Source: Candidatus Latescibacterota bacterium (lineage in GTDB: Bacteria; Latescibacterota; UBA2968; UBA8231). From it: a stretch of 64,000 nucleotides of DNA. The translations under genes were made by a program, and so were the position numbers. The stretch spans positions 896,001 to 960,000 of the forward strand of contig CBDFJF010000001.1 in the NCBI GenBank assembly GCA_965248265.1, given 5' to 3'. Each line of letters opens with the position of its first letter. Within the stretch, counting starts at the first letter, position 1. Below are positions 29,904-60,594 of the stretch, piece by piece. Under the pieces are notes generated by a model. That model was not told the DNA's origin and ran no database searches. It was given only the letters and a program-made list of their open reading frames with translations.

Positions 29904-30134
29904 TCATAGCTTGTCTGAGTAACTCGACAGCACCATATATCGATCGCCAGACCACGGCCCTCCTTGACGAACCACGAGCAAGTGATCCCCTTCGTGGCCG
30001 CCTCGGATCTCCTCCACCTCTCCGATTATCCAATCCCGCTTGCTGGTAAACCGGACCGTGTCGCCCGGTTCGAATCGCGTATTCGCAAGCCGCCGTGTGA
30101 CGCTGTCTGGTTGAACCGCTGGTAATCTTCGCAT
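29904..30134 (-). CDS. Small uncharacterised 'QGGPWSGDRY' protein, copy 1
   Basis: AGGAGAGG RBS; paralogous to 57808..58026 and 60373..60594. Confidence 0.75.
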   Translation of the reverse strand: MRRLPAVQPDSVTRRLANTRFEPGDTVRFTSKRDWIIGEVEEIRGGHEGDHLLVVRQGGPWSGDRYMVLSSYSDKL

Positions 30135-30170
30135 TGCAGTCCTCTCCTGTGTTTCGGTGTGACGCCTCGT

Positions 30171-30186
30171 TGCAACATCCATACCA
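30171..30186 (-). promoter_or_regulatory. Putative sigma-54 promoter
   Basis: TGGTAT-GGATG-TTGCA on the minus strand, 36 bp upstream of ATG 30134. Confidence 0.72.
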
Positions 30187-30276
30187 CCATACCGCGAGTG
30201 TCCTTAAGTCGTTTTGATTCCAGCAACTTGACAGCTGCCTGACAAGATTCGCTGCGCGCGCAACTCGCTGGCTAGG

Positions 30277-30311
30277 CCCCGAGATTTCGGGAATGTCCGG
30301 AAATATCGGGA
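30277..30311. promoter_or_regulatory. Tandem palindromic upstream activator sites between divergent sigma-54 promoters
   Basis: CCCCGA-GATT-TCGGGA (30277) and TCCGGA-AATA-TCGGGA (30296), starts 19 bp apart. Confidence 0.6.
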
Positions 30312-30411
30312 GCGACACCTGAGCACCGTGGCCCAATAATTTCGATGCGGCGTGCGTAAACGATTGAAAGGAAGCCACTTAAGACCTACCCGGGGGAGCT
30401 TTTTGCACCGG

Positions 30412-30427
30412 TGGCACAGAAGTTGTA
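30412..30427 (+). promoter_or_regulatory. Putative sigma-54 promoter (variant -12)
   Basis: TGGCAC-AGAAG-TTGTA, 23 bp upstream of ATG 30451. Confidence 0.6.
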
Positions 30428-30450
30428 TCACCAGCATCAAGGAGTTCAAC

Positions 30451-32175
30451 ATGGCGACAGGCAACGACAGATCGGAATTCGACATGGGCAACATCAACAC
30501 ACAAGAAACCACCGTAGCGCCGGAATGCCTTCTGAGGACGCCTGCTCTCGTCGGAATATTGGGCGTGCTCGTGGGAGCCGCGGTCGGCCTGTATGCCTAT
30601 TACGGCAGCCGAGCCGCCCTCGTGGATGTCGTCAGCGAGAGCAATCTGAATCTGGCTCGAAGCATCGCCGTGCACGCCGATGCTCTCAACGCCTCGATGT
30701 CAAGACGGGACGTGTTGCGCACGCTGGAAGAGCGGTGGGAGGCAACCGAATCACGATACGCTGGACGTCACCTGTGTGTCATCGACTCGGATGGCACGCT
30801 AGTGCTGGACAGCTCACATCCCGATAACGTCGGCATGGCTGCCGGCGCCGAGCGATTAGTGCACGACGTGAGCGGTGGACCCGAGACGATACAGCAGCTC
30901 ATCGACAGGGGGCGAGATTGGTCGGGTCTGTACAGCACTGATAGCGCTGAAAGAGTCGGTGCTTTCGCCATGAGCTCACGCTCAGGCATGTTGGTAAACA
31001 TCTTCACTCCCGGTGTCGAAATCGATCGCGATGTGCAATCGACGGCGTTGCCATGGGCTCTGGGAGTGGGATTCATGACGCTCGTCGTGCTCCCGATTGT
31101 ACTGTGGCTACCCTATCGGGCGTATGTGCGGTCGCACCGAAACCTCGAGGGCAGAACCGAACAGCTGCGCAGAGAGAATGCCGAACGCAGGCGTCTCGCC
31201 GCATTCCCGAGGGAGAATCCCAACCCGATCATGGAGTGCGATGCCGAAGGAGAGGTCATCTACCACAACCCGACCGCCATGGAGTTGATCGGACAACACG
31301 CCACCGGCCTCACCTCGGCTTTGATCCCGGAGAATCACGCAGCCCTGGTGCAGCGCTGTCTGGCCCAGGGCGAACGAATCGATCCAGTGGAGGTCGTGGC
31401 TGACGGCCGCACGTTCTGCTGGATATATCACCCGATAGCCGTCACCGATACCGTCCACCTCTACGGGCTCGACATAACCGAGCGCAAAGCGGCGGAGGAC
31501 CAGATCAAGAGGTCGCTCAAGGAGAAGGAAATCCTGCTGCAGGAGGTGTATCACCGGGTCAAGAACAACCTGCAAATCGTCTCGAGCCTGCTCCGGCAGC
31601 AGGCGGCAGCGACGGAAGACGAGAAAGCGCGGACCGTTCTCGAGGACAGCCGAAACCGGATTCACTCGATGGCGCTGGTTCACCAGCAGCTGTATCAGTC
31701 AGACAGTCTGGCCCGAGTTGATATGGGCAGATACACCCGGAACTTGGCCAGCTTTCTACTGCCTCAAGGATCCGGTCCAAACGAAATCCGACTGGATCTG
31801 GATGTGGACTCGATCCAGGTCGACCTGGCCACCGCGATTCCGGCGGGGCTCATACTCAACGAACTGCTAGCCAACGCAATGAAGTACGCCTACCCCGAAT
31901 CGTCCAAAGGTGACATCGCTGTCGCCATTCGAGAAGTGACGCCGGGCACCCTCAGCCTGACAGTACGGGACAAAGGCGTCGGTATTCCCGCGCACGTCGA
32001 CCTGAGCGAGCCAAAGTCGCTTGGGCTCCGGCTGGTGCGAGACCTGGCACAGCAACTAGAGGGAAAACTTCAAATCGACAACGACGACGGCACGGCTGTG
32101 ACGCTCACGTTTTCGACAAACGGCCACGACAGCGAAAGCGGGTCGGAGGCGAACAGCGAGGGAGGAAGAAGATGA
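30451..32175 (+). CDS. Membrane sensor histidine kinase, HisKA_2 type, with PAS
   Basis: Two TM segments, FPRENPNP PAS, EVYHRVKNNLQIVSSLL, LILNELLANAMKYA, SLGLRLV. Confidence 0.92.
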   Translation: MATGNDRSEFDMGNINTQETTVAPECLLRTPALVGILGVLVGAAVGLYAYYGSRAALVDVVSESNLNLARSIAVHADALNASMSRRDVLRTLEERWEATESRYAGRHLCVIDSDGTLVLDSSHPDNVGMAAGAERLVHDVSGGPETIQQLIDRGRDWSGLYSTDSAERVGAFAMSSRSGMLVNIFTPGVEIDRDVQSTALPWALGVGFMTLVVLPIVLWLPYRAYVRSHRNLEGRTEQLRRENAERRRLAAFPRENPNPIMECDAEGEVIYHNPTAMELIGQHATGLTSALIPENHAALVQRCLAQGERIDPVEVVADGRTFCWIYHPIAVTDTVHLYGLDITERKAAEDQIKRSLKEKEILLQEVYHRVKNNLQIVSSLLRQQAAATEDEKARTVLEDSRNRIHSMALVHQQLYQSDSLARVDMGRYTRNLASFLLPQGSGPNEIRLDLDVDSIQVDLATAIPAGLILNELLANAMKYAYPESSKGDIAVAIREVTPGTLSLTVRDKGVGIPAHVDLSEPKSLGLRLVRDLAQQLEGKLQIDNDDGTAVTLTFSTNGHDSESGSEANSEGGRR

Positions 32176-33152
32176 GTAAGTCCACCAACAAGACACGAAT
32201 TCTGGTCGTCGAAGATGAAATTCTGGTTGCCCGCGACCTGCAGCACCAGTTGACGGAGATGGGCTACGATGTCCCCGACATCGCCGGCGCGGGCGCCGAG
32301 GCGCTTGAAAAAGTCGAAGTCATCAAACCGGACCTCGTGCTCATGGACATTCGCATTCGTGGCGACATGGACGGGGTCGCGGTGGCCGAACAGGTGCACA
32401 GTCGCTTCCGCATCCCGGTCGTCTACCTGACAGCCTACGCCGACGACGCGACGGTTCAGCGGGCTAAGATTACCGAGCCTTTTGGGTATATCCTGAAGCC
32501 GTTTCAGGAGCGCGAGCTGGAAACGACCATCGAGATCGCGCTCTACAAACATGCCGCCGAGCGCCGCATCGCCGCCGCCCACACGCAGCTACAGCAGGCC
32601 CACGCGAGACTGGGTCGCCAATTCAAGGAGCTCCAGGGACGAGATCGATTAGTGCGATTCGAGATACGGTGCAACGGCCTAGCCGAAGGGCAGACGGAAA
32701 TTCTGGAGGTGGTCGCAGATGTGATGGGTGCGAAGAACGCCGTCCTCTACGAGCCGGACGCCGGGTTGTTGCACCTCGAGGCTGTCGCCACCAGGGAGGT
32801 CGAGTCGGACGAACCGGGGTCACCAGCGCCATCGACTCTCTCGATTCACGGCGACGACCATATCGCGGTCCAGGCCTTTGCCACATCACAACCCCGGCGC
32901 GACGGAGACATGGACGCCATCGCGGTACCCATGACGTTCGGCGAAGCGACGATCGGCGTCATATGGGCCGGCGGCTTCGCCGCAGGGGAGAATGTCAACG
33001 AGGAGGCACCCTACACCTTGTGGCGGCTGGCACAGCAGGCCTCGCTTCTGCTGCGGATGGCGCGCGTCAACGAGGCGATAGAGTGCGAAAACGTCCCAGT
33101 GAGTGAGCTTTTGGAACTCGATGCAGAGGTCTTTGACAACCATGACGCCTAA
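32172..33152 (+). CDS. Response regulator with C-terminal GAF-like region
   Basis: ILVVEDE, LVLMDI, YLTAY, YILKPF; C-terminus paralogous to 45962..46948. Confidence 0.88.
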   Translation: MSKSTNKTRILVVEDEILVARDLQHQLTEMGYDVPDIAGAGAEALEKVEVIKPDLVLMDIRIRGDMDGVAVAEQVHSRFRIPVVYLTAYADDATVQRAKITEPFGYILKPFQERELETTIEIALYKHAAERRIAAAHTQLQQAHARLGRQFKELQGRDRLVRFEIRCNGLAEGQTEILEVVADVMGAKNAVLYEPDAGLLHLEAVATREVESDEPGSPAPSTLSIHGDDHIAVQAFATSQPRRDGDMDAIAVPMTFGEATIGVIWAGGFAAGENVNEEAPYTLWRLAQQASLLLRMARVNEAIECENVPVSELLELDAEVFDNHDA

Positions 33153-34986
33153 CACGATGGAACGGCACAGTGAAGAGGCACCGTATCTCGCTACAAACGC
33201 AGGTGACGTGGCCTCCTTTCTCGCGGAGGTGGAGGATCTGACCGAAGAGACTCCAGCTGCGGAGCCGTCGAGGATGCCACCTCCAGGGAAGGGTTGGGGA
33301 AACGTCGAGCTCCTCGACCCTCGCAAGCCGGGTGAAAGCCTGTCATTCGAAGAGCTGGCAAGCACGTCGATCGGGCTCGAGGTCCTGTACGGCGCTGACA
33401 AGATAGACCCACAGGCGATCGGTCCGGTAAAGGCGATGGCCGCGGCACAGGGAGAGATTCTGGCGCGAGCGGCCGAGGCTGCGGGTAATACACCTGAACC
33501 AGGAGAGCGCGTCGTGCTGACGCGGGAAGGGGAGTACCGCGCCGAGCGCTACGGCTATGTCTGCCTCGTCGACGGCGCTGTGTCGGTGCGCTCGCCAGTG
33601 TGGATGGATGACAACCACATGCATGCCTACTGGCTCGTCCTGGATCCCGAACCACATCCGGTACGGGAGGAGATGATCCGTCAGTGGCTGGATGATTTGG
33701 GGATCGTCGTTGGTATCCGCGCGGATAAGATCGCCGACCTGGTGACGTCGATCCGCTCCGGGTCTCACAAGCGAGGCCTCTACCTCATCGCTGTGGGCCA
33801 GGAGCCCCGGCACGGCGAGGATGCCCAAGTCGAAGTGCTCGTGGACACGCAACGGCGGGCGGGGAAGGTGCGCGCAGATGGCTCCGTCGACTTTCGCGAG
33901 GTCAATTTCACTCCAACCGCGGGGCCCGGGCAGCTCATCGCCTGGCGAACGCCGGCTACGCAAGGCACGGCAGGACTGGATGTCAGAGGCAACGCTCTGC
34001 CCGCAGAGGACGGGGAAAACCGCGAGCTGAGAGCGGGTGGGAACGTGGAAGTGAAACAGAGCGCGGACAAAGAGGAGTATTACTCCAAAATTGCGGGGAT
34101 GCTGCGACTCGCAGAGAATGTCCTTACGGTGGCGGAGCTGCTCAGCATCGGCGGGGATGTCGATTTCCACACAGGCAACCTGAAATTCTCCGGCGAGGTC
34201 TACGTCAGCGGCTCGATCGCGCGGGGGTTTTCGGTAAAGGCGGGGGCGGATGTCACCGTGGGTGGCGCTTTAGAGCCCGGTGCGACCGTGTCGACAAGGG
34301 GAGATATCGCGGTGGGACAGGGAATCGTGGGCCGCAAGACGCGCGTCTTCGCCGGAGGCAGCGTGAGTGCCCAACACGCGCAGGAAGCGACGATCACGGC
34401 GGGAAAGGATATCTCCCTGGGGAGCTATGCCTACCACGCTAATCTTCGCGCCGGCGGCAAGGTCGTCATCGCCCGCAGTCAGGGAGATCGCGGAGGCAGT
34501 ATCATGGGGGGAAAGACGTGGGGGCGCCAGGGTATCGAGACCCACACGGCGGGCACATTGCACGGCATGGCTTCCGTCCTCGTGGCAGGGCTGAGCCCTG
34601 CTCAAGCGAAAGAGCTCGACCGAATCCACACGAGCATCACGGTGAGCAACACCCAGATGGAGCGCATTCTCAACCGGTTCGAGATGCAGACGATCGACCT
34701 CACTCAGATCAAGAACCTCATCAAGGCGGCAACGGGCCCCGCCCGCAAGGTACTGGCCCGTCGGGCGCATCAGCTGGGCCAGGTGGTACAGTCGCATCAA
34801 CAACTGCTCGCCAGGCAGAAGGAGATGCGAGAGCAGCTCGGGGCGGGCCGCAAGACCGAGATTAAAGTGTGGGACCGGGCATTCCCCGGCGTCACCGTCC
34901 GTCTCCGCGAGCACCAGCGGGAGCTCGTCGAGGAGCTCGAGGCACCGCGCTTCCGTATAGTGGAAGAGAAGCTTGTCGCGAAATGA
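33142..34986 (+). CDS. FapA (DUF342) family protein (start uncertain)
   Basis: GSVDFREVN, ATQGTAGLDVRG, GDVDFHTGNLKFSGEVYVSG, AFPGVTV. Confidence 0.85.
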   Translation: MTPNTMERHSEEAPYLATNAGDVASFLAEVEDLTEETPAAEPSRMPPPGKGWGNVELLDPRKPGESLSFEELASTSIGLEVLYGADKIDPQAIGPVKAMAAAQGEILARAAEAAGNTPEPGERVVLTREGEYRAERYGYVCLVDGAVSVRSPVWMDDNHMHAYWLVLDPEPHPVREEMIRQWLDDLGIVVGIRADKIADLVTSIRSGSHKRGLYLIAVGQEPRHGEDAQVEVLVDTQRRAGKVRADGSVDFREVNFTPTAGPGQLIAWRTPATQGTAGLDVRGNALPAEDGENRELRAGGNVEVKQSADKEEYYSKIAGMLRLAENVLTVAELLSIGGDVDFHTGNLKFSGEVYVSGSIARGFSVKAGADVTVGGALEPGATVSTRGDIAVGQGIVGRKTRVFAGGSVSAQHAQEATITAGKDISLGSYAYHANLRAGGKVVIARSQGDRGGSIMGGKTWGRQGIETHTAGTLHGMASVLVAGLSPAQAKELDRIHTSITVSNTQMERILNRFEMQTIDLTQIKNLIKAATGPARKVLARRAHQLGQVVQSHQQLLARQKEMREQLGAGRKTEIKVWDRAFPGVTVRLREHQRELVEELEAPRFRIVEEKLVAK

Positions 34987-35019
34987 CGGATCATATAGTC
35001 CGGTGTGGGATATTCGCTA

Positions 35020-36175
35020 GTGCTCTGTTAAGAAATCGAGCTTGTACTTTGTCGTAAGTCGTGGTATCATGGATACATATGGTGAATCCGTCAGGAGGGT
35101 CATGCTATGTGTCTCCATGCTCGTTCGCCGAACGCGGCGGAGTCTAAGGAACTGGGACGGTGGCTGAAACGGCCTCGCAACGCCGTGCAGATGCGCCGTG
35201 GGCAGTTGATCTCGTTCAGCGCCCAGGGCATGCGCGTCCAGGAGATCTCGGATACACTGCATCTGCATGAGGAGTACGTTCGCCAGTTGATCCGCCAGTA
35301 CAACGAAGGGGGATTGACGGTTTTGCGCACTCGGGCACGTCCGGGGCGTCCTTCGAAGTTGACGCCGGAGGACGAATCCGTGGTGGTGGAAATTGCCACG
35401 ATGCCCCCCCGTGCATTCGGCCAGCCGTTCAACCAGTGGTCGTTGCGCAAGCTGACCGACTGCCTGGTGGGACGGCAGATGATTCCCGAGGTTTCGCATG
35501 TGACCATCGGAAAAATCCTGGATCAACATAAGGTTACCTATCAACGGACGCGCACCTGGAAAGAATCAAAGGACCCGGAGTTTGTCTCTAAAAAAAACGC
35601 ATCAGCCGACTCTACAAGCGGGCGCCGAAAGACACGGTCGTAGTCTGTTTCGACGAACTGGGACCAGTCCAGATCAAGCCGCATGCCGGTGCTTCCTGGG
35701 CCCCACACAAGCGCCCGGTCCGGCATCGGGCAACCTATAGCCGCCACGGCGGCGTCAGCTATTTCTTTGGAGCCTATAACGTCCATGAGGACATCCTGTG
35801 GATGCATCACAAACCCAAGAAACATGCGTCGGTCGTACTCGATTTCCTCAAGGCCATTCGGCTCCGCTATCGCACGGCGGAGCGGATCTATGTCGTCATG
35901 GATAATCTGTCGACGCACAAGACACCGCCGATCCTGCAGTGGTGCCGACGAAACCGGGTCTCGCCGGTCTTCACCGCCACCAACGCGTCATGGATGAATC
36001 GGCTCGAATGTCACCTCACCGCAGCCCATTATTTCGTCATTAAAAACAGCGATCCCAACGATCATCGAGAAGTCGGCCAGCGCATGCAGGAGTACCTGAG
36101 GTGGCGAAACAAGAACACGGACAACGCCAAGCTGGCCAAAGTCCAAAACTCAATGCCCACTCTTTAACAGAGCAC
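35020..36175 (+). mobile_element. IS630-family insertion sequence
   Basis: 12-bp terminal inverted repeats GTGCTCTGTTAA / TTAACAGAGCAC, flanked by TA at 35018-35019 and 36176-36177. Confidence 0.92.
35107..36167 (+). CDS. IS630 transposase, two ORFs joined by a -1 frameshift
   Basis: HTH ORF (RPGRPSKLT, WSLRKL) to A8 run at 35590..35597; -1 frame gives KRISRLY..VVCFDELGP..VMDNLSTHK..ASWMNRLE. Confidence 0.88.
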
Positions 36176-36269
36176 TAGCTCTGTGATATTTGACTTCAGC
36201 GCGGCACAGGCAGTACGCTGTTGGGAGGTAAGACCCAATTGATCAACGCTAAGTGTTCAGCGCCGTCCG

Positions 36270-37991
36270 ATGGCCGAGGCTGCAAAAAAATCCGCTCAGA
36301 AAGCAAGTGCCCTCGCAAGGCTGGCCTCGTTTCCGGAGCAAAACCCCGATCCGGTAATCGAGGTCGATCTCAAGGGCACGGTCACCTATCTCAATCCGGC
36401 CGCCGAGCAGAGGTTTCCGGATCTGAGACAGAAAGGGCTGTCGCACGCGATGCTGGAGGGGTTGCCGTCGATCGCTGCCGCTCTCAGAGATGGCCGGGAG
36501 GAAGCCCTCCACCGTGAGCTCGCGCTCGAGGGTTTCACCTACGAACAAAAGATCACCTATGTAGCGGATAGCGATCTCGTGCGCATTTTTGCCCACGACC
36601 TGACCGAGCATGTGAAGGCCGAGGAGGCAGTGCGCGAAAGCGAGGCGCGGTTCCGCGGTATCTTCGAGCACTCCAACGACGCCATTTTCCTCATCGACAT
36701 TTCGCAGGACGAGATTCTCGACGCCAACTCCAGGGCATGCCGCATGCTCGGATACGAGCCCGAAGAGTTGCTGTCCTTGCCGGTTTCTGCTATTCATCCA
36801 GACGAAATGCCCCGCCTCCAGGCATTCGGCGAATCGGTTCTCAGCGAAGGACGTGGTTGAACCGATGAATTGACCTGTTTGATGAAGACAGGCCAGGTTC
36901 TCTCCGCGGAGATATCAGCTTCCACCGTCGACATACATGGACGTTCGTGCATAATCGCCATTGTGCGTGATCTGACCGAGCACAAGCGAGCCGAGCTCGT
37001 CATCGCGGATGAGGTTCAGGCCAAGTACAATTTCGAGGAGATCATCGGCCACAGCACGAGCCTGGAAGACGCGCTCAAGCAGGTGGAGCTCGTGGCTCCG
37101 ACGGATACGTCCGCGCTCATCGTCGGCGAAACAGGCACCGGCAAGGAGCTGATTTGTCGTGCCATTCATCATCTGAGTCAACGCAGCAAGAAGCCGCTCG
37201 TGAAACTGAACGTTGCGGCCATTCCTTCGGGGTTGATCGAGAGCGAACTGTTCGGTCACGAGAAGGGCGCTTTCACTGGGGCAATCTCTCAGAAGCGTGG
37301 CAGGTTTGAGCTGGCTCACGAGGGCACGATTTTCCTGGACGAGATTGGCGATCTGCCCCTGGATACGCAACCGAAGCTGCTGAGACTGTTGCAGGAGCAG
37401 GAGTTCGAGCGGGTCGGCGGCACACGCACGATCGAAGTCGACATCCGCGTGATCGCGGCGACCCACAGGAACCTCGAAGAGATAGTGCGGCAGGGTGAGT
37501 TCCGCGAGGATCTCTTCTATCGCTTGAATGTGTTTCCCATCTCCCTCCCGCCGCTGCGCCAGCGCCGGGAAGACATTCCCGTTCTCGCCAAATACTTCGA
37601 CAACCGCATTGGCGCCCGCTTTGGACGAGCGCCATGTGGATTCAGCGAGGAGGCCATGGAACGCCTGCTGGACTACCGCTGGCCCGGAAACGTGCGCGAA
37701 CTGGAAAACATCGTCGAAAGAGCAGCCATTTTAAGCGGCGGCATAACGATCCAGCGTGATCAGGTCCAGGTGGACAGCGGCGGCTCGGCTTCAGTGGCTG
37801 ACGACCAATTAAAACCGCTGCAAGAGATCGAGCGAGAGCATATCGTGGCGGCCCTGCGAGCGAGCAAAGGAAAAGTGAGTGGTAAGGGTGGCGCTGCAGA
37901 GCGCCTCGGCCTGAAGCCGAGTACACTGGACTCGAGGATGAAGAGGTTGGGGATCAGCCGCGAGAGCCTGTGGACACATCCATCGACCTGA
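36270..37991 (+). pseudogene. PAS-PAS sigma-54-dependent activator (AAA+/Fis HTH) with in-frame TGA at 36858..36860
   Basis: ORFs 36270..36860 and 36870..37991 share a frame; GRG*TDELTC corresponds to GTGWTDECTC in 46970..49303; GETGTGKE, GAFTGA, WPGNVREL. Confidence 0.85.
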
Positions 37992-38082
37992 TCGCTAAAG
38001 CTCTGGGAACCCACAGAAACGTCGACGAACGCGAATTCCCTCAGCAACGACTGGGTCCTGCCAGTTGGCCAGCCATCTGCGT

Positions 38083-52049: not shown

Positions 52050-52496
52050 TCAGTTTGTGGGCAACTTAACGACGGTGAACCAGAAGTCCTCGATGGATTT
52101 GACCACCTTGATGAACTGGTCAAAGTCCACCGGCTTCGTGATGTAGCAGTTGGCGTGCAGCCTATACACTTGGAGAACATCCTCTTCCGCCTCCGAGGTG
52201 GTCAGGATGACCGTGGGAATCAGCTGTAGGGATTCGTCCGCCTTTATTTCTGCCAGTACCTCTCGGCCGTCCTTCTTGGGCAGGTTCAAATCGAGTAGGA
52301 TCAGATCTGGACGTGGTACATCGCCGTTCGGACCCTCGCGCCGCAGAAAAGTCAGCGCTTCCACACCATCCTCTGCAACGTGAAGATGGTTGTGTATCTT
52401 GGCATCCTTGAGCGCTTCTATGGTCAACTCTACGTCGTTCGAGTTATCTTCGACCATCAGGATCTCGATGGGTCTGCATACCTCTGCAAAGCTCAT
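52050..52496 (-). CDS. Single-domain response regulator, Rcp1-like
   Basis: ILMVEDN, PDLILLDLNLPKKDG, ANCYITKPVD, FW motif. Confidence 0.92.
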   Translation of the reverse strand: MSFAEVCRPIEILMVEDNSNDVELTIEALKDAKIHNHLHVAEDGVEALTFLRREGPNGDVPRPDLILLDLNLPKKDGREVLAEIKADESLQLIPTVILTTSEAEEDVLQVYRLHANCYITKPVDFDQFIKVVKSIEDFWFTVVKLPTN

Positions 52497-53320: not shown

Positions 53321-53325
53321 AACGA

Positions 53326-54078
53326 TTACTTCACCTCAACAGAAGAGTCGCATCGGGTGAATACCGATCCTCCAACGAAGGGCAACACTGCCACCTTCGC
53401 ACTCAGTGCCAGGATCCTGAACATATCAGCAGTCTTGCGCGGGATGTGGACCTTGGAGAACAGGATTACCGCGAAGAGATCCCCTGAAGGAAGCATGCCA
53501 CCGAACCCCAGCGCCGATTGAATGCCGAATGGAATCACGAATTCCGCTTGGGCTGGGATGTACGGACTGCCCATTGCTTCGGGCACGTAGAACACGTTGT
53601 AGGATCTCTGATCCAGATCCACGATTATCGTTCGATCCGGCTGCAGTACTGCGTTCACGTCCAGTCCGAATTGATGAACTAATTGAGAGATCATCGGAAA
53701 TTGTGCGACAATGTCCTCGCTCGGGAGAGGAATCGCCTTATGACCGATCGAGTTCGCTCTGGAATTCCACTCGGACCTCTCACCGGCAGTCCCCAGCAGT
53801 ATCAGACACCTCATCGCAGGCGATTGGGCTCGGTTACCCACTAACTGGCAGGCGAATTCGCTAAGATCTCTGTCCAGATCCTGGAAAGGGTGCGTTTTGT
53901 AGAAACGGACGAGGACACAGGATCTGGCGCCGGTCTCCTGGTCGACGATGTGCTCTTGGAGATAGCGAACAATCCTTCCAGCCACCGTCTCCATGCTTTC
54001 AGCGCCGGCACCCATGCTGCGCAATGCCGAGGAGCATTTGCTCATGTCGCTCAGGGTAAAGTTTGTGAGATCGTACAT
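53326..54078 (-). CDS. Uncharacterised stand-alone GAF-like sensor protein
   Basis: Homologous to the N-terminus of 16298..17812 (LVRF, CLxLxGTAG, GHxxxPL, YIPxQ, LGFGGMLP); 5 bp upstream of the kinase. Confidence 0.75.
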   Translation of the reverse strand: MYDLTNFTLSDMSKCSSALRSMGAGAESMETVAGRIVRYLQEHIVDQETGARSCVLVRFYKTHPFQDLDRDLSEFACQLVGNRAQSPAMRCLILLGTAGERSEWNSRANSIGHKAIPLPSEDIVAQFPMISQLVHQFGLDVNAVLQPDRTIIVDLDQRSYNVFYVPEAMGSPYIPAQAEFVIPFGIQSALGFGGMLPSGDLFAVILFSKVHIPRKTADMFRILALSAKVAVLPFVGGSVFTRCDSSVEVK

Positions 54079-54150
54079 GGAACTATTCTCTCATCCCTCT
54101 ACCCGAAAATGGTTCTTCTCCATCACGGCTCCAGATACAGTCGGTTTTCT

Positions 54151-54417
54151 TTATGGTGCGTTTTGCACCAATTTCTTCAGAAACTGCGACCAGGCAACAC
54201 ATTGTACCCCTTCTATCTCAAGCTGACGTAGGAGCTCAGTACCGTGCGTGTCGGCGAAACCGACATCGGACAGATCCAGAACCAAGGACGACCCGATCTC
54301 TTCTTGGTGTTCTGAGCACGTTCTCCGAAGTAGCCGCACCCACTGACCTACGAGCTCTCCTTCCAATTTGAGGACAGTCTCTCCGTGTCGGTCTACAAGC
54401 TTGGTAATTCTGAGCAT
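54151..54417 (-). CDS. STAS-like protein
   Basis: MLRIT..VLKLEGELVGQWV..LDLSDVGFADTHG; paralog of 29239..29535. Confidence 0.8.
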   Translation of the reverse strand: MLRITKLVDRHGETVLKLEGELVGQWVRLLRRTCSEHQEEIGSSLVLDLSDVGFADTHGTELLRQLEIEGVQCVAWSQFLKKLVQNAP

Positions 54418-54450
54418 CGATTTTTTTTCTCTGGTCTGGAAAGGGGATCT

Positions 54451-54466
54451 TGCAATCTCCGTGCCA
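54451..54466 (-). promoter_or_regulatory. Sigma-54 promoter of the kai-containing operon
   Basis: TGGCAC-GGAGA-TTGCA matches TGGCAC-N5-TTGC; 33 bp upstream of ATG 54417. Confidence 0.85.
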
Positions 54467-54508
54467 CAACAATAAAAGCCACTCAAGGCTCCCGCCTAAG
54501 TGGCTTCA

Positions 54509-54521
54509 CATCAACTGCTTG
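54509..54521 (+). promoter_or_regulatory. IHF-like site
   Basis: CATCAACTGCTTG vs WATCAANNNNTTR (one mismatch), between promoter and upstream palindromes. Confidence 0.45.
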
Positions 54522-54569
54522 TTCAAAAAATGAGGTGACTATTTATGTGTGAGTTCGCATGTTTATGGC

Positions 54570-54616
54570 TCCCAATATGTTGGGAATTCCCAATCGGAAT
54601 CCTTAATATTTTGGGA
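54570..54616. promoter_or_regulatory. Palindromic upstream activator sites
   Basis: TCCCAA-TATG-TTGGGA (54570) and CCTTAA-TATT-TTGGGA (54601), ~105-150 bp upstream of the sigma-54 promoter. Confidence 0.65.
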
Positions 54617-54633
54617 AGTTGGGAAGTGAGTCT

Positions 54634-56649
54634 CTAAGAAACGCCGCGCTTCACTGCGAGTTTCTTCATCCTTGCCTCCAGCGTGGTGGGCTTGAGACCT
54701 AGCAGCGCCGCCGCTCCTCCCTTGCCGCTTACTTTTCCATTTGTCGCCTTTAGGGCAGCGAGAATGTGGCGCCTCTCCAGCTCATGCAATGGTAGCAGGC
54801 GGTGTTCATCAGGCGTCAGCCGGTGGTCTTCAAGCTGGATATGCTCTTCCTCAATCCGGCCTCCACCAGATAGGATGACGGACCGTTCAACTAAGTTCTC
54901 CATCTCACGCACATTTCCCGGCCACGCATAACTGTTGAGTCTCTCGATAACCTCTTCACTGAAGTCTGCAGGTGGAAGACCCAATCGGGCACACTTTTGC
55001 CGAGCGATAAAGCTGGCGAGCAGAGGGATGTCCTCTGTACGATCTCGAAGCGGTGGAACGTTGACAGGAAAAACGTTCAACCGAAAGAAGAGGTCTTTCC
55101 TAAATTGACCATCATTGACCATCTGTTCCAGGTTTCGATGTGTCGCGGCGACAATCCGAACATCAGCCTTGATTGTCCGAGTGCCACCCACGAGCTCGAA
55201 CTCCTGTTCCTGGAGCACTCGCAACAGTTTCGCCTGTGTTTCTAGCGGAAGGTCCCCAATTTCGTCGAGAAAAATCGTACCCTCATGTGCGAGTTGAAAC
55301 CGTCCTTGTTTTCTCGCAAATGCGCCTGTAAAGGCCCCCTTTTCGTGGCCGAACAGCTCGCTCTCAATTAACCCAGAAGGGATGGCTGCACAGTTGAGTT
55401 TGATCAAGGGCTTCGAATTCCGTTGACTCATCTGGTGTATTGCGCGGCAGATTAGTTCCTTCCCTGTTCCTGTCTCTCCCACAACCAGTACTGTAGTGTC
55501 CGTGTTTGCTACCAGCTCAACCTTGCGCATCACATCCTGCAGACCTTTGCTCTTTCCGATCACTTTGTCATAGCTGTATGTGCCGCGGACCTCATCTGCA
55601 AGGGCCTGCTCCGTTCGCCTGCGTTCGTTGATTTCTCGCTGAAGACGCTCGTTGGCTATTCTCAGGTCAGTGGTACGCTTCTCAACGCGGTGTTCCAACT
55701 CGGCTGAATCGCGCTGCACCTGTTCGAACAGCCGCGCCTGGCTGACCGCGATTGCGAGCTGATCAGCCACCTGGCGAGCAATCTCGATGTGTTCGGGCGA
55801 GAAACTCTTCGGTGATACAGCCGCTATGTTGAGGGCGCCAATTAGCTGGCCCCGTGGGGCGAGGGGTATGTTGATATAGGATCTCATCCCTTCAGCGAGT
55901 AGCTTCCGATGAACCGATGAGTCGGAGAAACCCGAAATGTCGTCGACTATGTGAACGTCCCCATTCCGCAGTGCCTGAGGGACTTCGTAGTCGTCTAGTG
56001 CGAACCGTGAGCCCGCACTAATACTGGTTTCGCCGTCTACCCGAATCGCGAAAACCTCAGCTTGTTCGGCTAGTAAGTCGAACAGGACAACACTCGCCCG
56101 CGCGTGTGGCAGCAACTGAGAAAGCTGATCGAGCGCCGCCTGGCCGATGTCTTCAGGGGACTGGGCGGCCAGAATAGCACGTTCAATCTCCAGAAGGCTC
56201 TGCAAACGTGCAACAACATTTCGTAGTTGCAGCTCTGCACGGTTGCGCTCTGTAACATCCGAAAGAACGGCAAGACTTCTCTCGTAGACGCCATCCGCAT
56301 CTCGTTGCACTACGGCTGATAACAGGACATCTATGATCTCCCCATTTTTCTTGACGAACTGATAGGGGACATCCTTGGCATAACCAGTCTGCATAAATGC
56401 AGGTAGCGTGACTGTTGTAGCGTGCTGTCGCGATTCCTCCGTGAGGAAATCCAGCGACCTGCGACCGATGACTTCATCCCGGTCGTATCCAAGTACCTCA
56501 AGCCAATGATCGCTGACCCCCACTATACGTCCACTCGCGTCGATCGAGTGCAACATGGCAGGCGCTCTATATAGCGCGTGCAACCGGTCATCGCTCTCTT
56601 GCAGCGCTTCTTCCGGGTCGTCGCGGGTCTCTAAACTGATGTCGTGCAC
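54634..56649 (-). CDS. PAS-GAF sigma-54-dependent activator (FhlA-like AAA+/Fis HTH)
   Basis: GETGTGKE, GHEKGAFTGA, FLDEIG, WPGNVRE, HTH GGAAALLGLKPTTL. Confidence 0.93.
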   Translation of the reverse strand: MHDISLETRDDPEEALQESDDRLHALYRAPAMLHSIDASGRIVGVSDHWLEVLGYDRDEVIGRRSLDFLTEESRQHATTVTLPAFMQTGYAKDVPYQFVKKNGEIIDVLLSAVVQRDADGVYERSLAVLSDVTERNRAELQLRNVVARLQSLLEIERAILAAQSPEDIGQAALDQLSQLLPHARASVVLFDLLAEQAEVFAIRVDGETSISAGSRFALDDYEVPQALRNGDVHIVDDISGFSDSSVHRKLLAEGMRSYINIPLAPRGQLIGALNIAAVSPKSFSPEHIEIARQVADQLAIAVSQARLFEQVQRDSAELEHRVEKRTTDLRIANERLQREINERRRTEQALADEVRGTYSYDKVIGKSKGLQDVMRKVELVANTDTTVLVVGETGTGKELICRAIHQMSQRNSKPLIKLNCAAIPSGLIESELFGHEKGAFTGAFARKQGRFQLAHEGTIFLDEIGDLPLETQAKLLRVLQEQEFELVGGTRTIKADVRIVAATHRNLEQMVNDGQFRKDLFFRLNVFPVNVPPLRDRTEDIPLLASFIARQKCARLGLPPADFSEEVIERLNSYAWPGNVREMENLVERSVILSGGGRIEEEHIQLEDHRLTPDEHRLLPLHELERRHILAALKATNGKVSGKGGAAALLGLKPTTLEARMKKLAVKRGVS

Positions 56650-56714
56650 ACTTTCCCTCCCGTGGTGTATGAACGGTGCTCACTAGGATGGAGCAGAACG
56701 GAGGAAAAGTGCTA

Positions 56715-57110
56715 CTAAATCAGAAGGGCTTGCTTTAGATCTAGCAGTGTAGGACCGGGCTTGTGCGTACGATCCGTGGTATGGCGGGCATCAAAAAACA
56801 GAACTTCGAGATAAGAGATCCTGTTGTGTGGCTGACCAAGCAAGCCTTGTGATAGTGAAGAAGCCTTGATTTGCCATTTGTCGAGGTTTACGGCCGGTCG
56901 ACTAGATTCCTTGATTTCGCAACAGCATCCGTCAGCAACAAAAGCCGAACGGCAGCACTCATCGAAGTGCACAGTCTGTTCACTGGCGGGACAGTATAGC
57001 AACAACCCATCAACCCCAATACTTGGTAGCAATATCAATGCTGCCAAGATGAGCCTGAGCACGGTGCTGGCCCTATTCACTATGGACTTTCGGTTTCGCA
57101 TGTCTCGCAT
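56715..57110 (-). CDS. Small Cys-rich membrane/exported hypothetical protein
   Basis: Hydrophobic N-terminal segment, then YC..ECCR..GCCCE. Confidence 0.5.
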   Translation of the reverse strand: MRDMRNRKSIVNRASTVLRLILAALILLPSIGVDGLLLYCPASEQTVHFDECCRSAFVADGCCCEIKESSRPAVNLDKWQIKASSLSQGLLGQPHNRISYLEVLFFDARHTTDRTHKPGPTLLDLKQALLI

Positions 57111-57811
57111 GTTTCTCGAGTGGCCTTCCGTTCAGGCCAGATGTTCCAAAGCGAAGCTCCGAAGAGAAGAACAAAACCGGCTCCTGTGAATATTGCATTA
57201 TCTAACAGATACCGACTGGTAAGAATTGCCGCAGAAGCGATAAGACCAACCACAAGTGGCTTTAACCCACGTCGCCGACGGCGAGCTTGATAGGCCAGAC
57301 CAAGGATGGACATTGTGAGGAGTACAATAATCCCTGGTGTGACGTACGGGGTATAGTCAACAAAACCAAGACCTACAGATCCCAGCAGTCCAGCATATGC
57401 CGGCCAACATAGAGAACAACTGAGGGCCGGCAGCAATGTCGCGCCGAATGCGGGGAAGCTCGCCAAGCCACCAATCCAACTGACAGCTGACGACTTCGGT
57501 TTCGATGGATTCTGATCCAACGATGAGGATATCGTCTCAATGGAGGGAACGCCCTGAAAGCCTCCATCCTCCGCCTTGTAAATTCGACAGTTGTTCGCGT
57601 CAGCGTCTTGAGAGACGCCGGAAACATCCGTTCCGTTGAACAAAATGGTAGGTGAGCCATACCGGTGGACATGACCAGGCGCCTCGGGATCTTCCTGGTT
57701 CCACTCCGTCCATTCTGTTGGTCGGTCTGCAAGTGTTAAGGCGTGGTTGAGGCGTTTTCTAGCGCTGTCCACATTTGGACAATCCGGGTCGTATATCAGT
57801 TCAACACTCAT
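57080..57811 (-). CDS. Thioredoxin-like domain fused to MerC-like membrane domain
   Basis: ELIYDPDCPN, YGSPTIL, CRIY, then LSCSLCWPAYAGLLGSVGLGF and further TM helices; CETC at the C-terminus. Confidence 0.78.
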   Translation of the reverse strand: MSVELIYDPDCPNVDSARKRLNHALTLADRPTEWTEWNQEDPEAPGHVHRYGSPTILFNGTDVSGVSQDADANNCRIYKAEDGGFQGVPSIETISSSLDQNPSKPKSSAVSWIGGLASFPAFGATLLPALSCSLCWPAYAGLLGSVGLGFVDYTPYVTPGIIVLLTMSILGLAYQARRRRRGLKPLVVGLIASAAILTSRYLLDNAIFTGAGFVLLFGASLWNIWPERKATRETCETCETESP

Positions 57812-58026
57812 TGTCTCCACCCTTTCCCATGGGCCACTCTCAGGCGGCCAGAGGATGTAGCGAGCTTCTCCGAACAACTGGACAGAACGATGTATCGGTC
57901 CCCGGACCAAGGTCCGCCCTGAGTAGATGGTCCCTTCGTGACCTCGTCGTCCTCCACTTCGCCGATTATCCAGTCTCCCTTGCTCGCAAAATGGACTGTG
58001 TCGCTTGGCTCAAATCGCGTCATCAT
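57808..58026 (-). CDS. Small uncharacterised 'QGGPWSGDRY' protein, copy 2
   Basis: RFEPSDTVHF..WIIGEVE..QGGPWSGDRYIVLSS; AGAGG RBS; ATGA coupling to the next gene. Confidence 0.72.
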   Translation of the reverse strand: MMTRFEPSDTVHFASKGDWIIGEVEDDEVTKGPSTQGGPWSGDRYIVLSSCSEKLATSSGRLRVAHGKGWRQ

Positions 58027-58089
58027 GTTCCTCTTTGAATTCACTCGCTCAACCGGGCGTTCATCATATATGTGCTTGGCCTAACTTGG

Positions 58090-58107
58090 TAGTTGTATAT
58101 ACAACTA
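58090..58107. promoter_or_regulatory. Perfect 18-bp palindrome, putative MarR operator
   Basis: TAGTTGTATATACAACTA; core repeated at 58611..58624. Confidence 0.75.
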
Positions 58108-58124
58108 ATGCCAACAAGAGAGTC

Positions 58125-58571
58125 TTATTGCTCCTCGCACGATGACCTTACAGATTCGGCGATTCTCATAACCTCCTTTATGCCATTCTTGCCAAGTATG
58201 GACTCCGCCTTGTGCTGGGCGTTTTCCCATAAGGGCATCGCTTTACGAAAGACTTCGCGACCCTTGGCGGTGAGTTCCAAGGTATTCGTGCGGCCACTCT
58301 CTTCACGTATTACGTCAAGCCAACCACGCTCACCGAGCAGTCTAAGATTTCTGCTCATTGTAGATTTCTCCATGTATAGAAACGCACCAATTTCGGCTGG
58401 GCTGGCTGTTCCATGTCTGGCTATGACCCCCAGTATGTTCATTTGACTCGTGGTAATCCCCAATGGGCTAATAGCTTGATCGTAAATATTTGTAATTACA
58501 CGATTTAGAAGCCGTATCTTATCTGCAATACAGACCTGGTTCACGTGCGCGGCCTCAGCTTGAGTAACCAT
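58125..58571 (-). CDS. MarR-family transcriptional regulator
   Basis: CIADKIRLLNRVITNIYD, GITTSQMNIL, MEKSTMSRNL, LTAKG. Confidence 0.9.
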   Translation of the reverse strand: MVTQAEAAHVNQVCIADKIRLLNRVITNIYDQAISPLGITTSQMNILGVIARHGTASPAEIGAFLYMEKSTMSRNLRLLGERGWLDVIREESGRTNTLELTAKGREVFRKAMPLWENAQHKAESILGKNGIKEVMRIAESVRSSCEEQ

Positions 58572-58608
58572 CCAATTGCCCTTTGCCTGAGTAACCAAGA
58601 TATTCCTG

Positions 58609-58641
58609 TAGTTGTATATACAACGGCCTGGGCTTCGTCAA
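58609..58641 (-). promoter_or_regulatory. Second operator copy overlapping a sigma-70-like promoter of marR
   Basis: GTTGTATATACAAC at 58611..58624; minus strand TTGACG-N17-TATACA. Confidence 0.65.
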
Positions 58642-58753
58642 GGGGTAATTCTTGTGTCTCCGTCTATCTGTCCTTGGGTCGCATGTTAGTTAGATGCCGA
58701 AGCGCTAGGCCGCATCCCGAATGGATGGATGGGCTCGTCAACGGGCTGCTAGA

Positions 58754-59233
58754 TCAAAGCCGTCCTTCCTCTACATCGAACACATCAAACAGGGTGACAA
58801 TTGATTTGTCCGGCGGTTGGATCTGCGGGATGTAATCCTCCAGGTAGAGCTGCGACTCGACCGGGAGGTCGCTGATTCGCAACTCGCGCATCTGGTTGTT
58901 CCATTTCACAATCTCAGATCGCTCTCGCTGGATGGCATATTCCCGTATCCACCGATCCATCTCACTGTCGTCCGCACCGGTGGCTACAAACTGCATGAAG
59001 TCGAGGACGTTGATGGTGGTGAAGTCGAAAAACCTGCGGTCGAGCTTGCAGTTGAACTCGTAGTCACCGAGCGTGCCGGCGAGATAGGCACGGCCCTTGT
59101 CGAGAGTCCGAGCGGCAAACACGTAGTCTGCGATCTTTTCTCTGGGGCCTCGCGGTGGATCGATGTTCAGATCCGTTGCCAGTCCGTCCAGGCCCTCGTG
59201 GTTGATCTCAAATGGAAAGGTCGTAGCGGTCAT
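58754..59233 (-). CDS. DUF5069-family protein
   Basis: PRGPRE, ARTLDKGRA, GDYEFNCKLD, FDVEEGR; GAGGAG RBS. Confidence 0.78.
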   Translation of the reverse strand: MTATTFPFEINHEGLDGLATDLNIDPPRGPREKIADYVFAARTLDKGRAYLAGTLGDYEFNCKLDRRFFDFTTINVLDFMQFVATGADDSEMDRWIREYAIQRERSEIVKWNNQMRELRISDLPVESQLYLEDYIPQIQPPDKSIVTLFDVFDVEEGRL

Positions 59234-59291
59234 CGTGTACTCCTCGTTTTTGACAATCTCGTGAAATCGGTGCGCTTGATGGTCATGCGGA

Positions 59292-60326
59292 TCAAGCAGC
59301 CCAGGGTAGCAGGACGACGTTACCAACCACCTGGCCGGAAGGCAGTAAGCGGTGCGCTTGAGCGGCTTCGCTGAGAGGAAGGGTTCGGTCCAGCGCTGGT
59401 TTGATTCTCCCGGCGTTGACCTGTTCCAAACCCCACCTGAGATCCTCAATGTCGCCGCCCATCGACCCACGTAGTTGCTTTTGACCGAAGAAGAAGTTGC
59501 GGATATCGAAGGTTACCTCGGTCCCGGCGACGAAGCCGAAAGCGACAACGGTGCCGAGTCCCTTCACGGCGTCGATGCTCTTGGAGAGGACATCGCCGCC
59601 CAGGTTGTCGATGACGACATCAGCGCCACTACCATCGGTCCACTGTTTTACGACCTCGACGAAATCCTCTTGGCGCGTGTTGATCGCGAGGTCTGCGCCC
59701 AGTTTTTTCGCGAACTGCCCCTTGTCGTCGCTGCGGACCGTAGTGGCGACTTCGGCACCGAGTGCCTTTGCCACCTGAATCTGCATGCTTCCAGAGCCGG
59801 AAGCTCCGGCGTGGACCAGGACCTTGTCCCCGGCCTCAACTTCGCCGACGCCCCTGACGGCACGGACGGCAGTCGTCAAAACCATGGGCAAGGTCGCTAC
59901 TTCCTCCGGCTTCAGGCCGGTGTCATCCTTGATCACCCACCGCGCGGGGATCTCGATGTACTGGGCGTAGGTACCCGGAATTCCCAGACCGGGCAACGTG
60001 AAGCTCGACGCGCTGGCCGCGGGCCGGATGTCGTATTCTTCCTCATCGAGAGGAAATCCCGGTACGGGGATAACGCGTTCGCCGGTTTCAAAGCCCGTGA
60101 CTCCTGCCCCCAACTTCGCCACCTCACCGGCGGCGTCGGCGCCCAGGATGTGTGGGAAGGAAAGTTCCGGCACCACCGAGCCTTCGCGGATGTAGTACTC
60201 CAAGCGATTTATTCCGGCGGCGAGCACCTTGATCAGGATGTGTCCGGGCCTCGGCTCGGGTGTGCTGACTTCATCGACCGTGAGCACATCGGGGTCTCCG
60301 AATTGATGGATCAAAGCAGCTTTCAT
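59292..60326 (-). CDS. NADPH:quinone oxidoreductase-like MDR enzyme
   Basis: MKAALIHQFGDPDVL, PHILGADAAG, VLVHAGASGSG; zinc ligands absent. Confidence 0.88.
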   Translation of the reverse strand: MKAALIHQFGDPDVLTVDEVSTPEPRPGHILIKVLAAGINRLEYYIREGSVVPELSFPHILGADAAGEVAKLGAGVTGFETGERVIPVPGFPLDEEEYDIRPAASASSFTLPGLGIPGTYAQYIEIPARWVIKDDTGLKPEEVATLPMVLTTAVRAVRGVGEVEAGDKVLVHAGASGSGSMQIQVAKALGAEVATTVRSDDKGQFAKKLGADLAINTRQEDFVEVVKQWTDGSGADVVIDNLGGDVLSKSIDAVKGLGTVVAFGFVAGTEVTFDIRNFFFGQKQLRGSMGGDIEDLRWGLEQVNAGRIKPALDRTLPLSEAAQAHRLLPSGQVVGNVVLLPWAA

Positions 60327-60372
60327 GATCTCACCTGTCCTTTCTGGGACGAATTCAATCCTGGTTTGATTG

Positions 60373-60594
60373 TCAATTCAATTTTGGAGACGCGTGAGTA
60401 GACGCTACCTTGTCTGCGTAGCTGGACAACACGACATATCGGTCTCCTGACCACGGTCCCCCCTGTCGGACCACCAGCAGATGGTCCCCACCGTGTCCTT
60501 TCCGGATCTCCTCCACCTCGCCTACGATCCAGTGTTCCTGTTCTCCGCGATACGTAAAACTGACTGCATCTCCTGGCTTAAAACCGGTCATCAT
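60373..60594 (-). CDS. Small uncharacterised 'QGGPWSGDRY' protein, copy 3
   Basis: GFKPGDAVSF..WIVGEVEEIR.GH.GDHLLVVRQGGPWSGDRYVVLSSY; AAGGAGG RBS. Confidence 0.78.
   Translation of the reverse strand: MMTGFKPGDAVSFTYRGEQEHWIVGEVEEIRKGHGGDHLLVVRQGGPWSGDRYVVLSSYADKVASTHASPKLN

Follow-up and report, generated by a model that had tools for sequence, protein, structure and literature searches.

A lineage-restricted family of small proteins with a predicted SH3/Tudor-like barrel fold, encoded at the head of putatively sigma-54- or MarR-controlled operons in Latescibacterota

A stretch of DNA of 64,000 nucleotides (nt) from a Candidatus Latescibacterota bacterium (NCBI GenBank assembly GCA_965248265.1, contig CBDFJF010000001.1, positions 896,001 to 960,000 of the forward strand), referred to here in its full length as the window, encodes three related small open reading frames (ORFs). 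An earlier reading of this DNA, called the original prediction below, had described them as three copies of an unrecognised protein of about 73 amino acids (aa), each leading a regulated transcription unit. We name this protein family S and its copies in the window w1, w2 and w3 (copies 1, 2 and 3; Table 1). All three ORFs lie on the minus strand where they had been placed and align at 74-75% identity to w1 with 30 invariant columns, which include F-P-D-V-F, WI-GEVE and QGGPWSGDRY-VLSS, and their nucleotide identity is only 68-71%. A ribosome-binding site had been claimed for each ORF, and a purine-rich Shine-Dalgarno-like stretch does precede every start (GGAGAGG for w1, AAGAGG for w2 and AAGGAGG for w3). 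By a profile search of the whole genome exactly four S copies were found in the 7.3-Mb assembly, the fourth, c4, being located on contig 2. The diverged and shortened middle noticed earlier in copy 2 corresponds to the deletion of 7 residues in the region that reads 'GDHLLVVR' in the other copies. This deletion would remove the third strand of the fold predicted for S; no orthologue with a w2-type deletion occurs among the homologous sequences found, and w2 may be a decaying or a specialised copy.

Table 1. Positions of the S genes, putative regulatory sites and neighbouring genes (window positions unless a genome, contig or locus is named)
Feature	Position	Strand	Remarks
S copy 1 (w1)	29904..30134	-	76 aa; N-terminal extension of 17 residues, shared with homologue P0012
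S copy 2 (w2)	57808..58026	-	72 aa; most diverged copy; stop overlaps the ATG of the following gene (ATGA)
S copy 3 (w3)	60373..60594	-	73 aa; copy used for the fold model
S copy c4	G000:C2:139888-140076		contig 2; 60 aa
Sigma-54-type -24/-12 motif, copy 1	30171..30186	-	TGGTAT-GGATG-TTGCA; 36 nt before the copy 1 start
Sigma-54-type -24/-12 motif, copy 3	60728..60743	-	TGGCAT-CGACC-TTGCA; about 135 nt before the copy 3 start
Imperfect 12-6-12 inverted repeat	60848..60876		TGATATGTCGTG N6 CACGATATGTCA; about 105-135 nt upstream of the copy 3 -24 element
Perfect 18-nt palindrome (putative MarR-type operator)	58090..58107		TAGTTGTATATACAACTA; between the MarR gene and copy 2
MarR-family regulator gene	58125..58598	-	directly upstream of copy 2
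NrtS-family small membrane protein	29561..29896	-	NF038050, 50.7 bits (cut-off 25); start 8 nt after the copy 1 stop
133-aa ORF	29239..29640	-	no Pfam or NCBIfam match
Zinc-dependent alcohol dehydrogenase (Zn-ADH)/quinone-oxidoreductase-type gene	59292..60326	-	downstream of copy 3
DUF5069 protein	58754..59233	-	159 aa from ATG; separated from copy 3 by one gene
Fusion of a thioredoxin-like 'DF family' part and MerC	57080..57811	-	downstream of copy 2; DF part sub-threshold, 44.7 bits (cut-off 70)
131-aa ORF with clustered cysteines (CC..CCCE)	56715..57110	-	no library match; flanked by the genes of the MerC fusion and the sigma-54 activator
PAS-GAF sigma-54 activator (enhancer-binding protein)	54634..56649	-	Sigma54_activat domain; end of the copy 3/copy 2 gene string
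Activator, locus L020	L020:1604-3577		Sigma54_activat domain
Activator, locus L041	L041:2366-3766		Sigma54_activat domain
rpoN	G000:C1:559941-560414

Two of the three window copies had been placed behind sigma-54 promoters. A scan of the 250 nt upstream of each S start on the sense strand for GGYAY-N5-TTGC recovered the corresponding motifs ahead of copies 1 and 3, with the GG (-24) and GC (-12) elements at 10-nt spacing upstream of the first gene that are expected of a putative sigma-54-type promoter. The same motif occurs at 8 of 13 S loci in genomes (w1, w3, c4, L019, L021, L022, L023 and L024; it is absent at w2, L020, L026, L027 and L028) and at eight of the nine metagenome S loci having upstream DNA, L049 being negative; L050 has no upstream DNA and was left out of this count. 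After collapsing identical and near-identical loci (L022/L023, L041-L043 and L021/L044/L045), 11 of 17 distinct loci carry it. As a control, non-overlapping ORFs of 100 aa or more were picked greedily from the same DNA; the motif precedes 3 of 158, one of these being the extended w3 ORF, which leaves 2 of 157. The background amounts to 16 matches in 371,918 nt on both strands, eight of them the putative S promoters themselves. For locus L030 (genome G162) no intact S ORF was recovered, since a TAG lies inside it, and this locus was left out of the promoter and substitution counts, its neighbour being listed below. Two other GGYAY-N5-TTGC motifs were seen in the window, one at 54465 on the minus strand ahead of an ORF at 54151-54486, and one at 24096 on the plus strand.

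The genome encodes rpoN, and genes of activators with a Sigma54_activat domain are found in the gene string of w2 and w3, in the L020 cluster and immediately upstream of S in L041-L043. At c4, L047 and L048 a hairpin followed by a T-run lies between the preceding CoxM-like gene and the sigma-54-type motif, suggesting that S heads a new unit there. Moreover, a repeat near-identical to the 12-6-12 inverted repeat of w3 is present at about 105-137 nt upstream of the -24 motif in the unrelated metagenome locus L041. The repeat common to both loci is built on TGATATGTCG and is a candidate activator-binding site. The half-site recurs with one mismatch within the coding sequence of S copy 3 (60430-60441, encoding 'RYVV'), probably by coincidence.

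For copy 2 a MarR palindrome had been claimed, and the region between the MarR gene and w2 indeed holds a perfect 18-nt palindrome, so that a putative palindromic operator stands beside the gene of its likely regulator. A similar site, GTTGCATATACAAC, lies upstream of S in L020, the cluster of which also includes a MarR gene. A putative MarR-type operator therefore takes the place of the sigma-54-type motif at two loci, w2 and L020. Judged from these motifs, S genes form the promoter-proximal cistron of putative operons behind sigma-54-type promoters or, at these two loci, a MarR-type operator, which agrees with the earlier view that each window copy leads a regulated unit. The presence of several apparently old paralogues per genome, each heading what appears to be a regulated operon, is an unusual genomic habit.

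The age and the coding status of the copies were assessed in a codon alignment of 12 copies (4 from this genome and 8 from other genomes) over 60 core codons. The synonymous substitution rate (dS) is saturated or at least 1.39 for every pair except the near-identical L022/L023, and with the same exception the non-synonymous rate (dN) ranges from 0.12 to 0.47. The dN/dS ratio is 0.066-0.214 in those pairs where it could be computed, and w2 compared with the other copies gives dN values of 0.175-0.45. Synonymous sites are thus saturated while the amino acids are conserved, showing that the S ORFs are genes and not DNA or RNA elements. By this measure the paralogues appear to have diverged long ago, with purifying selection acting on their amino-acid sequence; conservation of nucleotides without a codon-level signature, which would have spoken against a protein, was looked for and purifying selection at the codon level was found instead. 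It is conceivable that only the translation of the ORF matters, as for a leader or coupling ORF, or that the conservation reflects a DNA or RNA element, and the tight junctions at two copies, i.e., the ATGA overlap at copy 2 and the 8-nt gap at copy 1, would suit such a role. We regard this as extremely improbable in view of the saturated synonymous sites combined with strongly conserved amino acids, the confidently predicted fold, junctions of at least 47 nt to the next gene at other loci, the existence of some stand-alone loci and the absence of any Rfam family overlapping the S ORFs.

A word-indexed search of 5.8 billion proteins returned 32 homologues (E 2.7e-36 to 3.5e-6), none of which is named for a function, one record bearing just the label 'hypothetical protein'. 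The supposition that genes of this size are missed by annotation was not quite correct, as gene callers do predict these ORFs (database sequences match copies 1 and 2) and merely leave them without a name. When the profile was run exhaustively against 1.84 billion cluster representatives, 12 matches came out at E<=0.001, nine of them to small proteins (40-99 aa). The remaining three are long and repetitive: a 696-aa protein of tandem repeats, in which the similarity is confined to profile positions 36-53 and recurs eight times, and two repeat proteins of 816 aa (sushi repeats) and 448 aa. They were read as chance or partial motif matches, and no convincing fusion of S was found. Within the phylum S occurs in 8 of 168 genomes (4 of the 52 high-quality ones), which belong to three families, and three genomes have more than one copy. 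The named genome records encoding S are all metagenome-assembled genomes of Latescibacterota. A match in Tistlia consotensis (L025, 37% identity) was rejected, being antisense to a solute-binding-protein gene, and so was L051 with a match of only 22 residues.

No model of Pfam, NCBIfam, PHROGs or PADLOC reaches its cut-off with S, the best match in a sequence search against the PDB has an E-value of only 1.2, and the full-text literature that was searched yielded no publication dealing with S. The family is in this respect as unrecognised as had been suggested. Among the best neighbours in the sequence libraries is the HAS-barrel (PF09378), matched by 15 of 33 S members with a best E-value of 0.0035, but the window copies score 13.1-13.4 bits against a gathering cut-off of 25.2. 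DUF3553 (PF12073) is matched by 5 of 33 members with a best E-value of 0.015, copy 1 reaching 15.2 bits (E 0.017) against a cut-off of 20.3. Both matches span only about 25 residues, the N-terminal 'PGDxVxF...GEVEEI' hairpin, and S belongs to neither family. By language-model features the orphan small proteins DsrB and DUF3104, which are similar in size, come out as neighbours (0.90-0.92), a range that chance also reaches; neither an alignment nor an E-value speaks for their kinship with S. Taken together with the upstream motifs and the substitution pattern, it is very likely that S is a real protein family under sigma-54-type or MarR-type regulation.

The C-termini of S are variable, probably disordered tails of very different lengths, which in many cases have (F/L/I/S/K)-L-N as their last residues. 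This ending was seen in copy 3 (60373-60381), L026, L027, P0004-P0007, P0010, P0011, P0016, P0017, P0022 and P0037, and its Leu codon varies among loci (TTG, CTA). It may be a docking motif. The orthologue in L021 (L021:6007-6162) stops after '...RYIVL', where all others run on with 'SSY...'. An identical truncation is present in L044 and L045, and its occurrence in three records points to either a real shorter form or a pseudogene.

The flanking ORFs were scanned with Pfam and NCBIfam, and gene orders are given along the S strand. At w1, S is followed by NrtS and the 133-aa ORF, with a divergent HisKA_2 kinase, a receiver and FapA on the other strand. The original prediction had named the two following genes nrtS and STAS; the former is borne out by its NCBIfam match, the latter finds no counterpart in either library. 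The copies w3 and w2 lie in one minus-strand string consisting of w3, the quinone-oxidoreductase-type ADH, DUF5069, MarR, w2, the DF-like/MerC fusion, the 131-aa cysteine-rich ORF and the PAS-GAF activator. Library matches confirm the quinone reductase and the DUF5069 protein that had been recognised behind copy 3. Of the thioredoxin-MerC fusion reported behind copy 2 the MerC domain stands, and the N-terminal thioredoxin-like part was recovered only below its threshold. At c4 the order is a CoxS/L/M-type dehydrogenase, S, a 171-aa protein and a 3-hydroxyisobutyrate-dehydrogenase-like gene, an arrangement found whole or in part in L024, L047, L048, L049 and L050.

Elsewhere the orders are activator, NmrA, deiodinase-like, S, DUF5069, NrtS, MarR and HisKA_2 kinase (L020); S, DUF4136, DUF5069, ADH and an HMA-domain protein (L026); Rrf2, S, DUF899 and MMPL (L027); S, ADP-ribosylglycohydrolase and SBP_bac_5 (L019); S and SBP_bac_5 (L021); activator, S, SnoaL and ADH (L041-L043); and S and peptidase M61 (L030). 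No same-strand gene follows S at L022/L023, L028 and L046, which are three distinct loci. By annotation of these neighbours, S operons appear to encode redox, thiol and small-solute functions, i.e., quinone oxidoreductase, DUF5069, thioredoxin-like/MerC, DUF899, NrtS and 3-hydroxyisobutyrate-dehydrogenase-like proteins. In a tree of 18 S copies, in which only one fork reaches the tool's mark of strong support, w3 groups with L026 (support 81/91), L019 with L021 (91/94), and the c4-type copies form a clade (91/94), suggesting that paralogue types keep their own operon type across families of the phylum. The L020 cluster (genome G099) unites the activator, DUF5069, NrtS, MarR and the HisKA_2 kinase, which are split over two places in the present genome; this suggests a rearrangement of an ancestral locus.

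An SH3-, KOW- or Tudor-like barrel had been guessed for S from the pattern of its short strands, and structure prediction and structure searches support this guess at the level of the fold class. The AlphaFold2 model of copy 3, calculated from a 33-row alignment, has a predicted local distance difference test score (pLDDT) of 81.3 and a predicted template modelling score (pTM) of 0.67. The modelled strands comprise residues 10-16, 20-31, 39-44 and 51-56, followed by a 3-10 turn and a short fifth strand, and residues 67-73 are disordered. The model thereby shows the closed barrel of five antiparallel strands and about 60 residues that characterizes the Tudor/SH3-like class. A structure search independent of Foldseek returned 180 chains at a Z-score of at least 5, nearly all of them barrels of the SH3/Tudor-like class. 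The top neighbour is the PHF19 Tudor domain (Z 8.4, root-mean-square deviation (rmsd) 1.9 A, 56 residues aligned), and the list includes SAWADEE (Z 8.0, rmsd 2.4, 63 aligned) as well as R67 dihydrofolate reductase, NusG KOW, PetP and others at Z 6.5-7.5. In Foldseek the top rows are Tudor domains, ribosomal bL19, the PcrA/UvrD Tudor domain and nitrile hydratase beta. Two points count against a closer assignment: a Foldseek search of the PDB brought up nothing at E<=0.001, and by the search tool's own guide Z values of 7-8 are typical of a common arrangement, for which reason only the fold class and no function was taken from these matches. We consider it probable, with good confidence in the model, that S is a small barrel of the SH3/Tudor-like class. 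S is a new sequence family with a familiar predicted fold.

Among barrels of known function, the Tudor or 'royal family' domains (PHF19, SGF29, TDRD3 and SMN) are alike in predicted fold, SGF29 giving a Foldseek E-value of 1.1e-2 and a query-normalised TM-score (TMq) of 0.59, without a match in sequence. However, S is a stand-alone bacterial protein of putative stress operons. Moreover, at the positions that might contribute to an aromatic cage, W22 of copy 3 varies W/L/F/E/R and W48 varies W/L/I/F/G across the 33 members, so that a conserved methyl-lysine or methyl-arginine cage is not evident in S. A second comparison concerns NdhS, PetP and PsaE, accessory subunits of the electron-transfer machinery of cyanobacteria that are likewise stand-alone barrels of about 60 residues; ferredoxin docks on NdhS and PsaE. 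NdhS (Ssl0352) reaches Z 8.1, but with an rmsd of 4.9 A over 63 aligned residues; the chain 6hum_S gives Z 7.1, rmsd 2.6 A, 53 aligned and 21% identity, and PetP gives Z 6.5, rmsd 2.7 A and 57 aligned. S adjoins redox genes as well. However, there is no relation at the sequence level, S is acidic, and neither genes of the NAD(P)H dehydrogenase (NDH) complex nor a link to photosynthetic genes was seen beside any S copy. Kinship with the RNA-polymerase-interacting domain of CarD and TRCF (PF02559) was not supported, as the Pfam scan gave no match to this domain and a profile comparison with the Mfd domains of 11 relatives in the phylum gave an hhalign probability of 0.18% (E 0.33; both alignments are shallow). 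The CarD_TRCF_RID model itself matches 11 of 13 Latescibacterota genomes searched (this genome, G000, and 12 relatives), once each, in Mfd-like frames of 1130-1493 aa, and no stand-alone CarD-like gene was found in these 13 genomes. At most, S is comparable to small SH3-like accessory subunits such as NdhS, PetP and PsaE or to Tudor-like interaction modules, and it is a detectable member of none of these.

The 60-residue core of S is acidic, with an isoelectric point (pI) of 4.6-6.2 in 12 of 12 copies, arguing against RNA binding and for protein binding. The notion of an RNA-binding regulator, which the original prediction had offered beside an adaptor role, is disfavored by this result. If S were a KOW- or Sm-like protein acting on its own mRNA, its position as promoter-proximal cistron and the leader of about 135 nt of copy 3 would fit, as would the NusG KOW domains (Z 6.9 and 6.8) and ribosomal protein bL19 among the fold neighbours. 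However, the acidic core is unlike that of typical RNA binders, the likeness to NusG/Spt5 and ribosomal L24 is confined to the fold, with scores no higher than for unrelated barrels, and S matches no KOW sequence model; the 13 Pfam families that the scan of the 33 members lists at E<=1 include neither a KOW nor an Sm/Hfq model. An RNA-binding function is therefore considered very improbable.

S is a lineage-restricted family of mildly acidic proteins of about 60 residues, with a predicted five-strand barrel and often a disordered tail. It might be made whenever its operon is induced and might act by binding to another protein, serving the operon products as a small accessory or adaptor subunit. 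The best current candidate for such a partner, where it is present, may be DUF5069. It is encoded, above the Pfam cut-off, at most two genes downstream of S in three distinct loci (w3, L020 and L026). A prediction of the complex of w3 with DUF5069, both entered as alignments, ended with the tool's verdict 'weak support': the median score is 0.35 (runs 0.01, 0.35 and 0.38), the highest of 3 controls scored 0.00, at least 70% of contacts are common to the runs, and the pLDDT of the partner is 65-76. Of the solved complexes 116 of 157, and of the mismatched pairs 2 of 215, attained the mark applied by the tool; at scores of 0.60 and below only 18 of the 157 solved complexes passed, as did both mismatches. 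DUF5069 itself is modelled as an all-helical domain (pLDDT 85), and its structure matches only 3omd (E 3.4e-5), a protein of no assigned function. One 433-aa open frame of the genome holds three tandem DUF5069 domains (G000:C1:303712-304959, plus strand).

Several observations weigh against an accessory subunit of this kind. According to the tool's calibration, a score in this range points to a false complex more often than to a true one, except where the pair was likely beforehand. DUF5069 has 11 matches in the genome, and only 2 of these 11 adjoin S. The neighbour at c4-type loci resembles DUF5069 only below the threshold (E 2.5e-4 and 1.2e-5), and its assignment was left unconfirmed by a shallow profile comparison with an hhalign probability of 0.14%. 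Furthermore, the downstream genes are heterogeneous (ADP-ribosylglycohydrolase, SBP_bac_5, peptidase M61 and SnoaL among them), and the loci at which no same-strand gene follows (L022/L023, L028 and L046) suggest that S needs no partner encoded in its operon. The view that S is induced with its operon and binds the operon products, DUF5069 for instance, as an accessory protein, and with it the adaptor role proposed originally, can therefore be put forward only tentatively, and we rate its probability clearly below even.

The main competing reading assigns to S a role as feedback modulator of its own regulon: by binding to RNA polymerase/sigma-54 or to the GAF/PAS enhancer-binding activator of its own operon, it might dampen or boost activation. 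PspA acts on PspF and HycA on FhlA, and both are encoded first in sigma-54 operons. S likewise comes first after a sigma-54-type promoter and has an activator gene in its vicinity, whereas it resembles neither protein in sequence or fold. Such a modulator would be consistent with the invariably promoter-proximal position of S ahead of unrelated downstream genes, with its being the sole gene behind its own sigma-54-type motif in L022/L023 and L046, and with the nearness of activator genes, which adjoin S on its upstream side in L041-L043 and belong to its cluster in w2/w3 and L020. Paralogue types that track operon types would also follow from a match of each S copy to its own activator. The weak neighbours in fold and sequence include RNA-polymerase-binding Tudor-like domains of bacteria (the PcrA/UvrD Tudor domain, and Tudor_RapA with 2 of 33 members and a best E-value of 0.014). 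However, the Tudor_RapA matches are far below threshold, the comparison with the RNA-polymerase-interacting domain of Mfd described above gave no sign of kinship, and the two loci w2 and L020 have a MarR-type operator and no sigma-54 motif. By analogy with PspA and HycA a feedback role is possible, if rather unlikely. A more far-reaching version would make S a new class of small Tudor/SH3-like sigma-54 modulators, in which each paralogue binds the sensory or AAA+ part of its own activator, or RNA polymerase-sigma-54, to give operon-specific feedback, and in which duplication of a 'promoter + S' module has recruited new operons in Latescibacterota; this we hold to be distinctly unlikely.

Alternatively, S might work alone as a stress-induced binder of small molecules or metals or as a holdase, in which case S and its operon neighbours would share no more than a thiol, electrophile or metal stress as their stimulus. 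The loci are rich in suitable neighbours (the MerC fusion, the HMA-domain protein, DUF899, a T4-deiodinase-like protein, rhodanese, a P-type ATPase fragment and the Rrf2 and MarR regulators), loci without a following gene exist, and the orphan small proteins DsrB and DUF3104 are feature neighbours, which are to be taken as leads only. However, S has no conserved Cys or Met, and the positions of His vary (H/F/Y and H/N/F/D). A metal site formed by 'HEGDH' was rejected for the reason that both of its His positions vary. Similarity to CusF is sub-threshold, with 3 of 33 members and a best E-value of 0.031. A stand-alone binder is accordingly regarded as improbable, even more so than the class of sigma-54 modulators just outlined.

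If the accessory role and the regulation proposed here hold true, an unnamed family, found so far only in a phylum without cultured representatives, would mark operons for redox, thiol and small-solute functions that are controlled by sigma-54 or MarR. S would provide a handle to define a stress regulon in Latescibacterota from sequence alone, and a handle on DUF5069, which has a solved structure and no assigned role. Moreover, it would allow one to ask whether small barrels serve as operon-specific accessory or feedback factors. As the family is narrow, its value is moderate and lies mostly with specialists in small proteins, sigma-54 regulation and candidate phyla.

Two RNA features were seen in the window apart from the S loci. 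A ZMP/ZTP riboswitch aptamer (RF01750) extends from 63912 to the window end at 64000 on the plus strand (65.4 bits against a gathering cut-off of 39), and a match to a group II intron domain (RF00029) covers 1452-1527 on the minus strand (54 bits against a gathering cut-off of 40).

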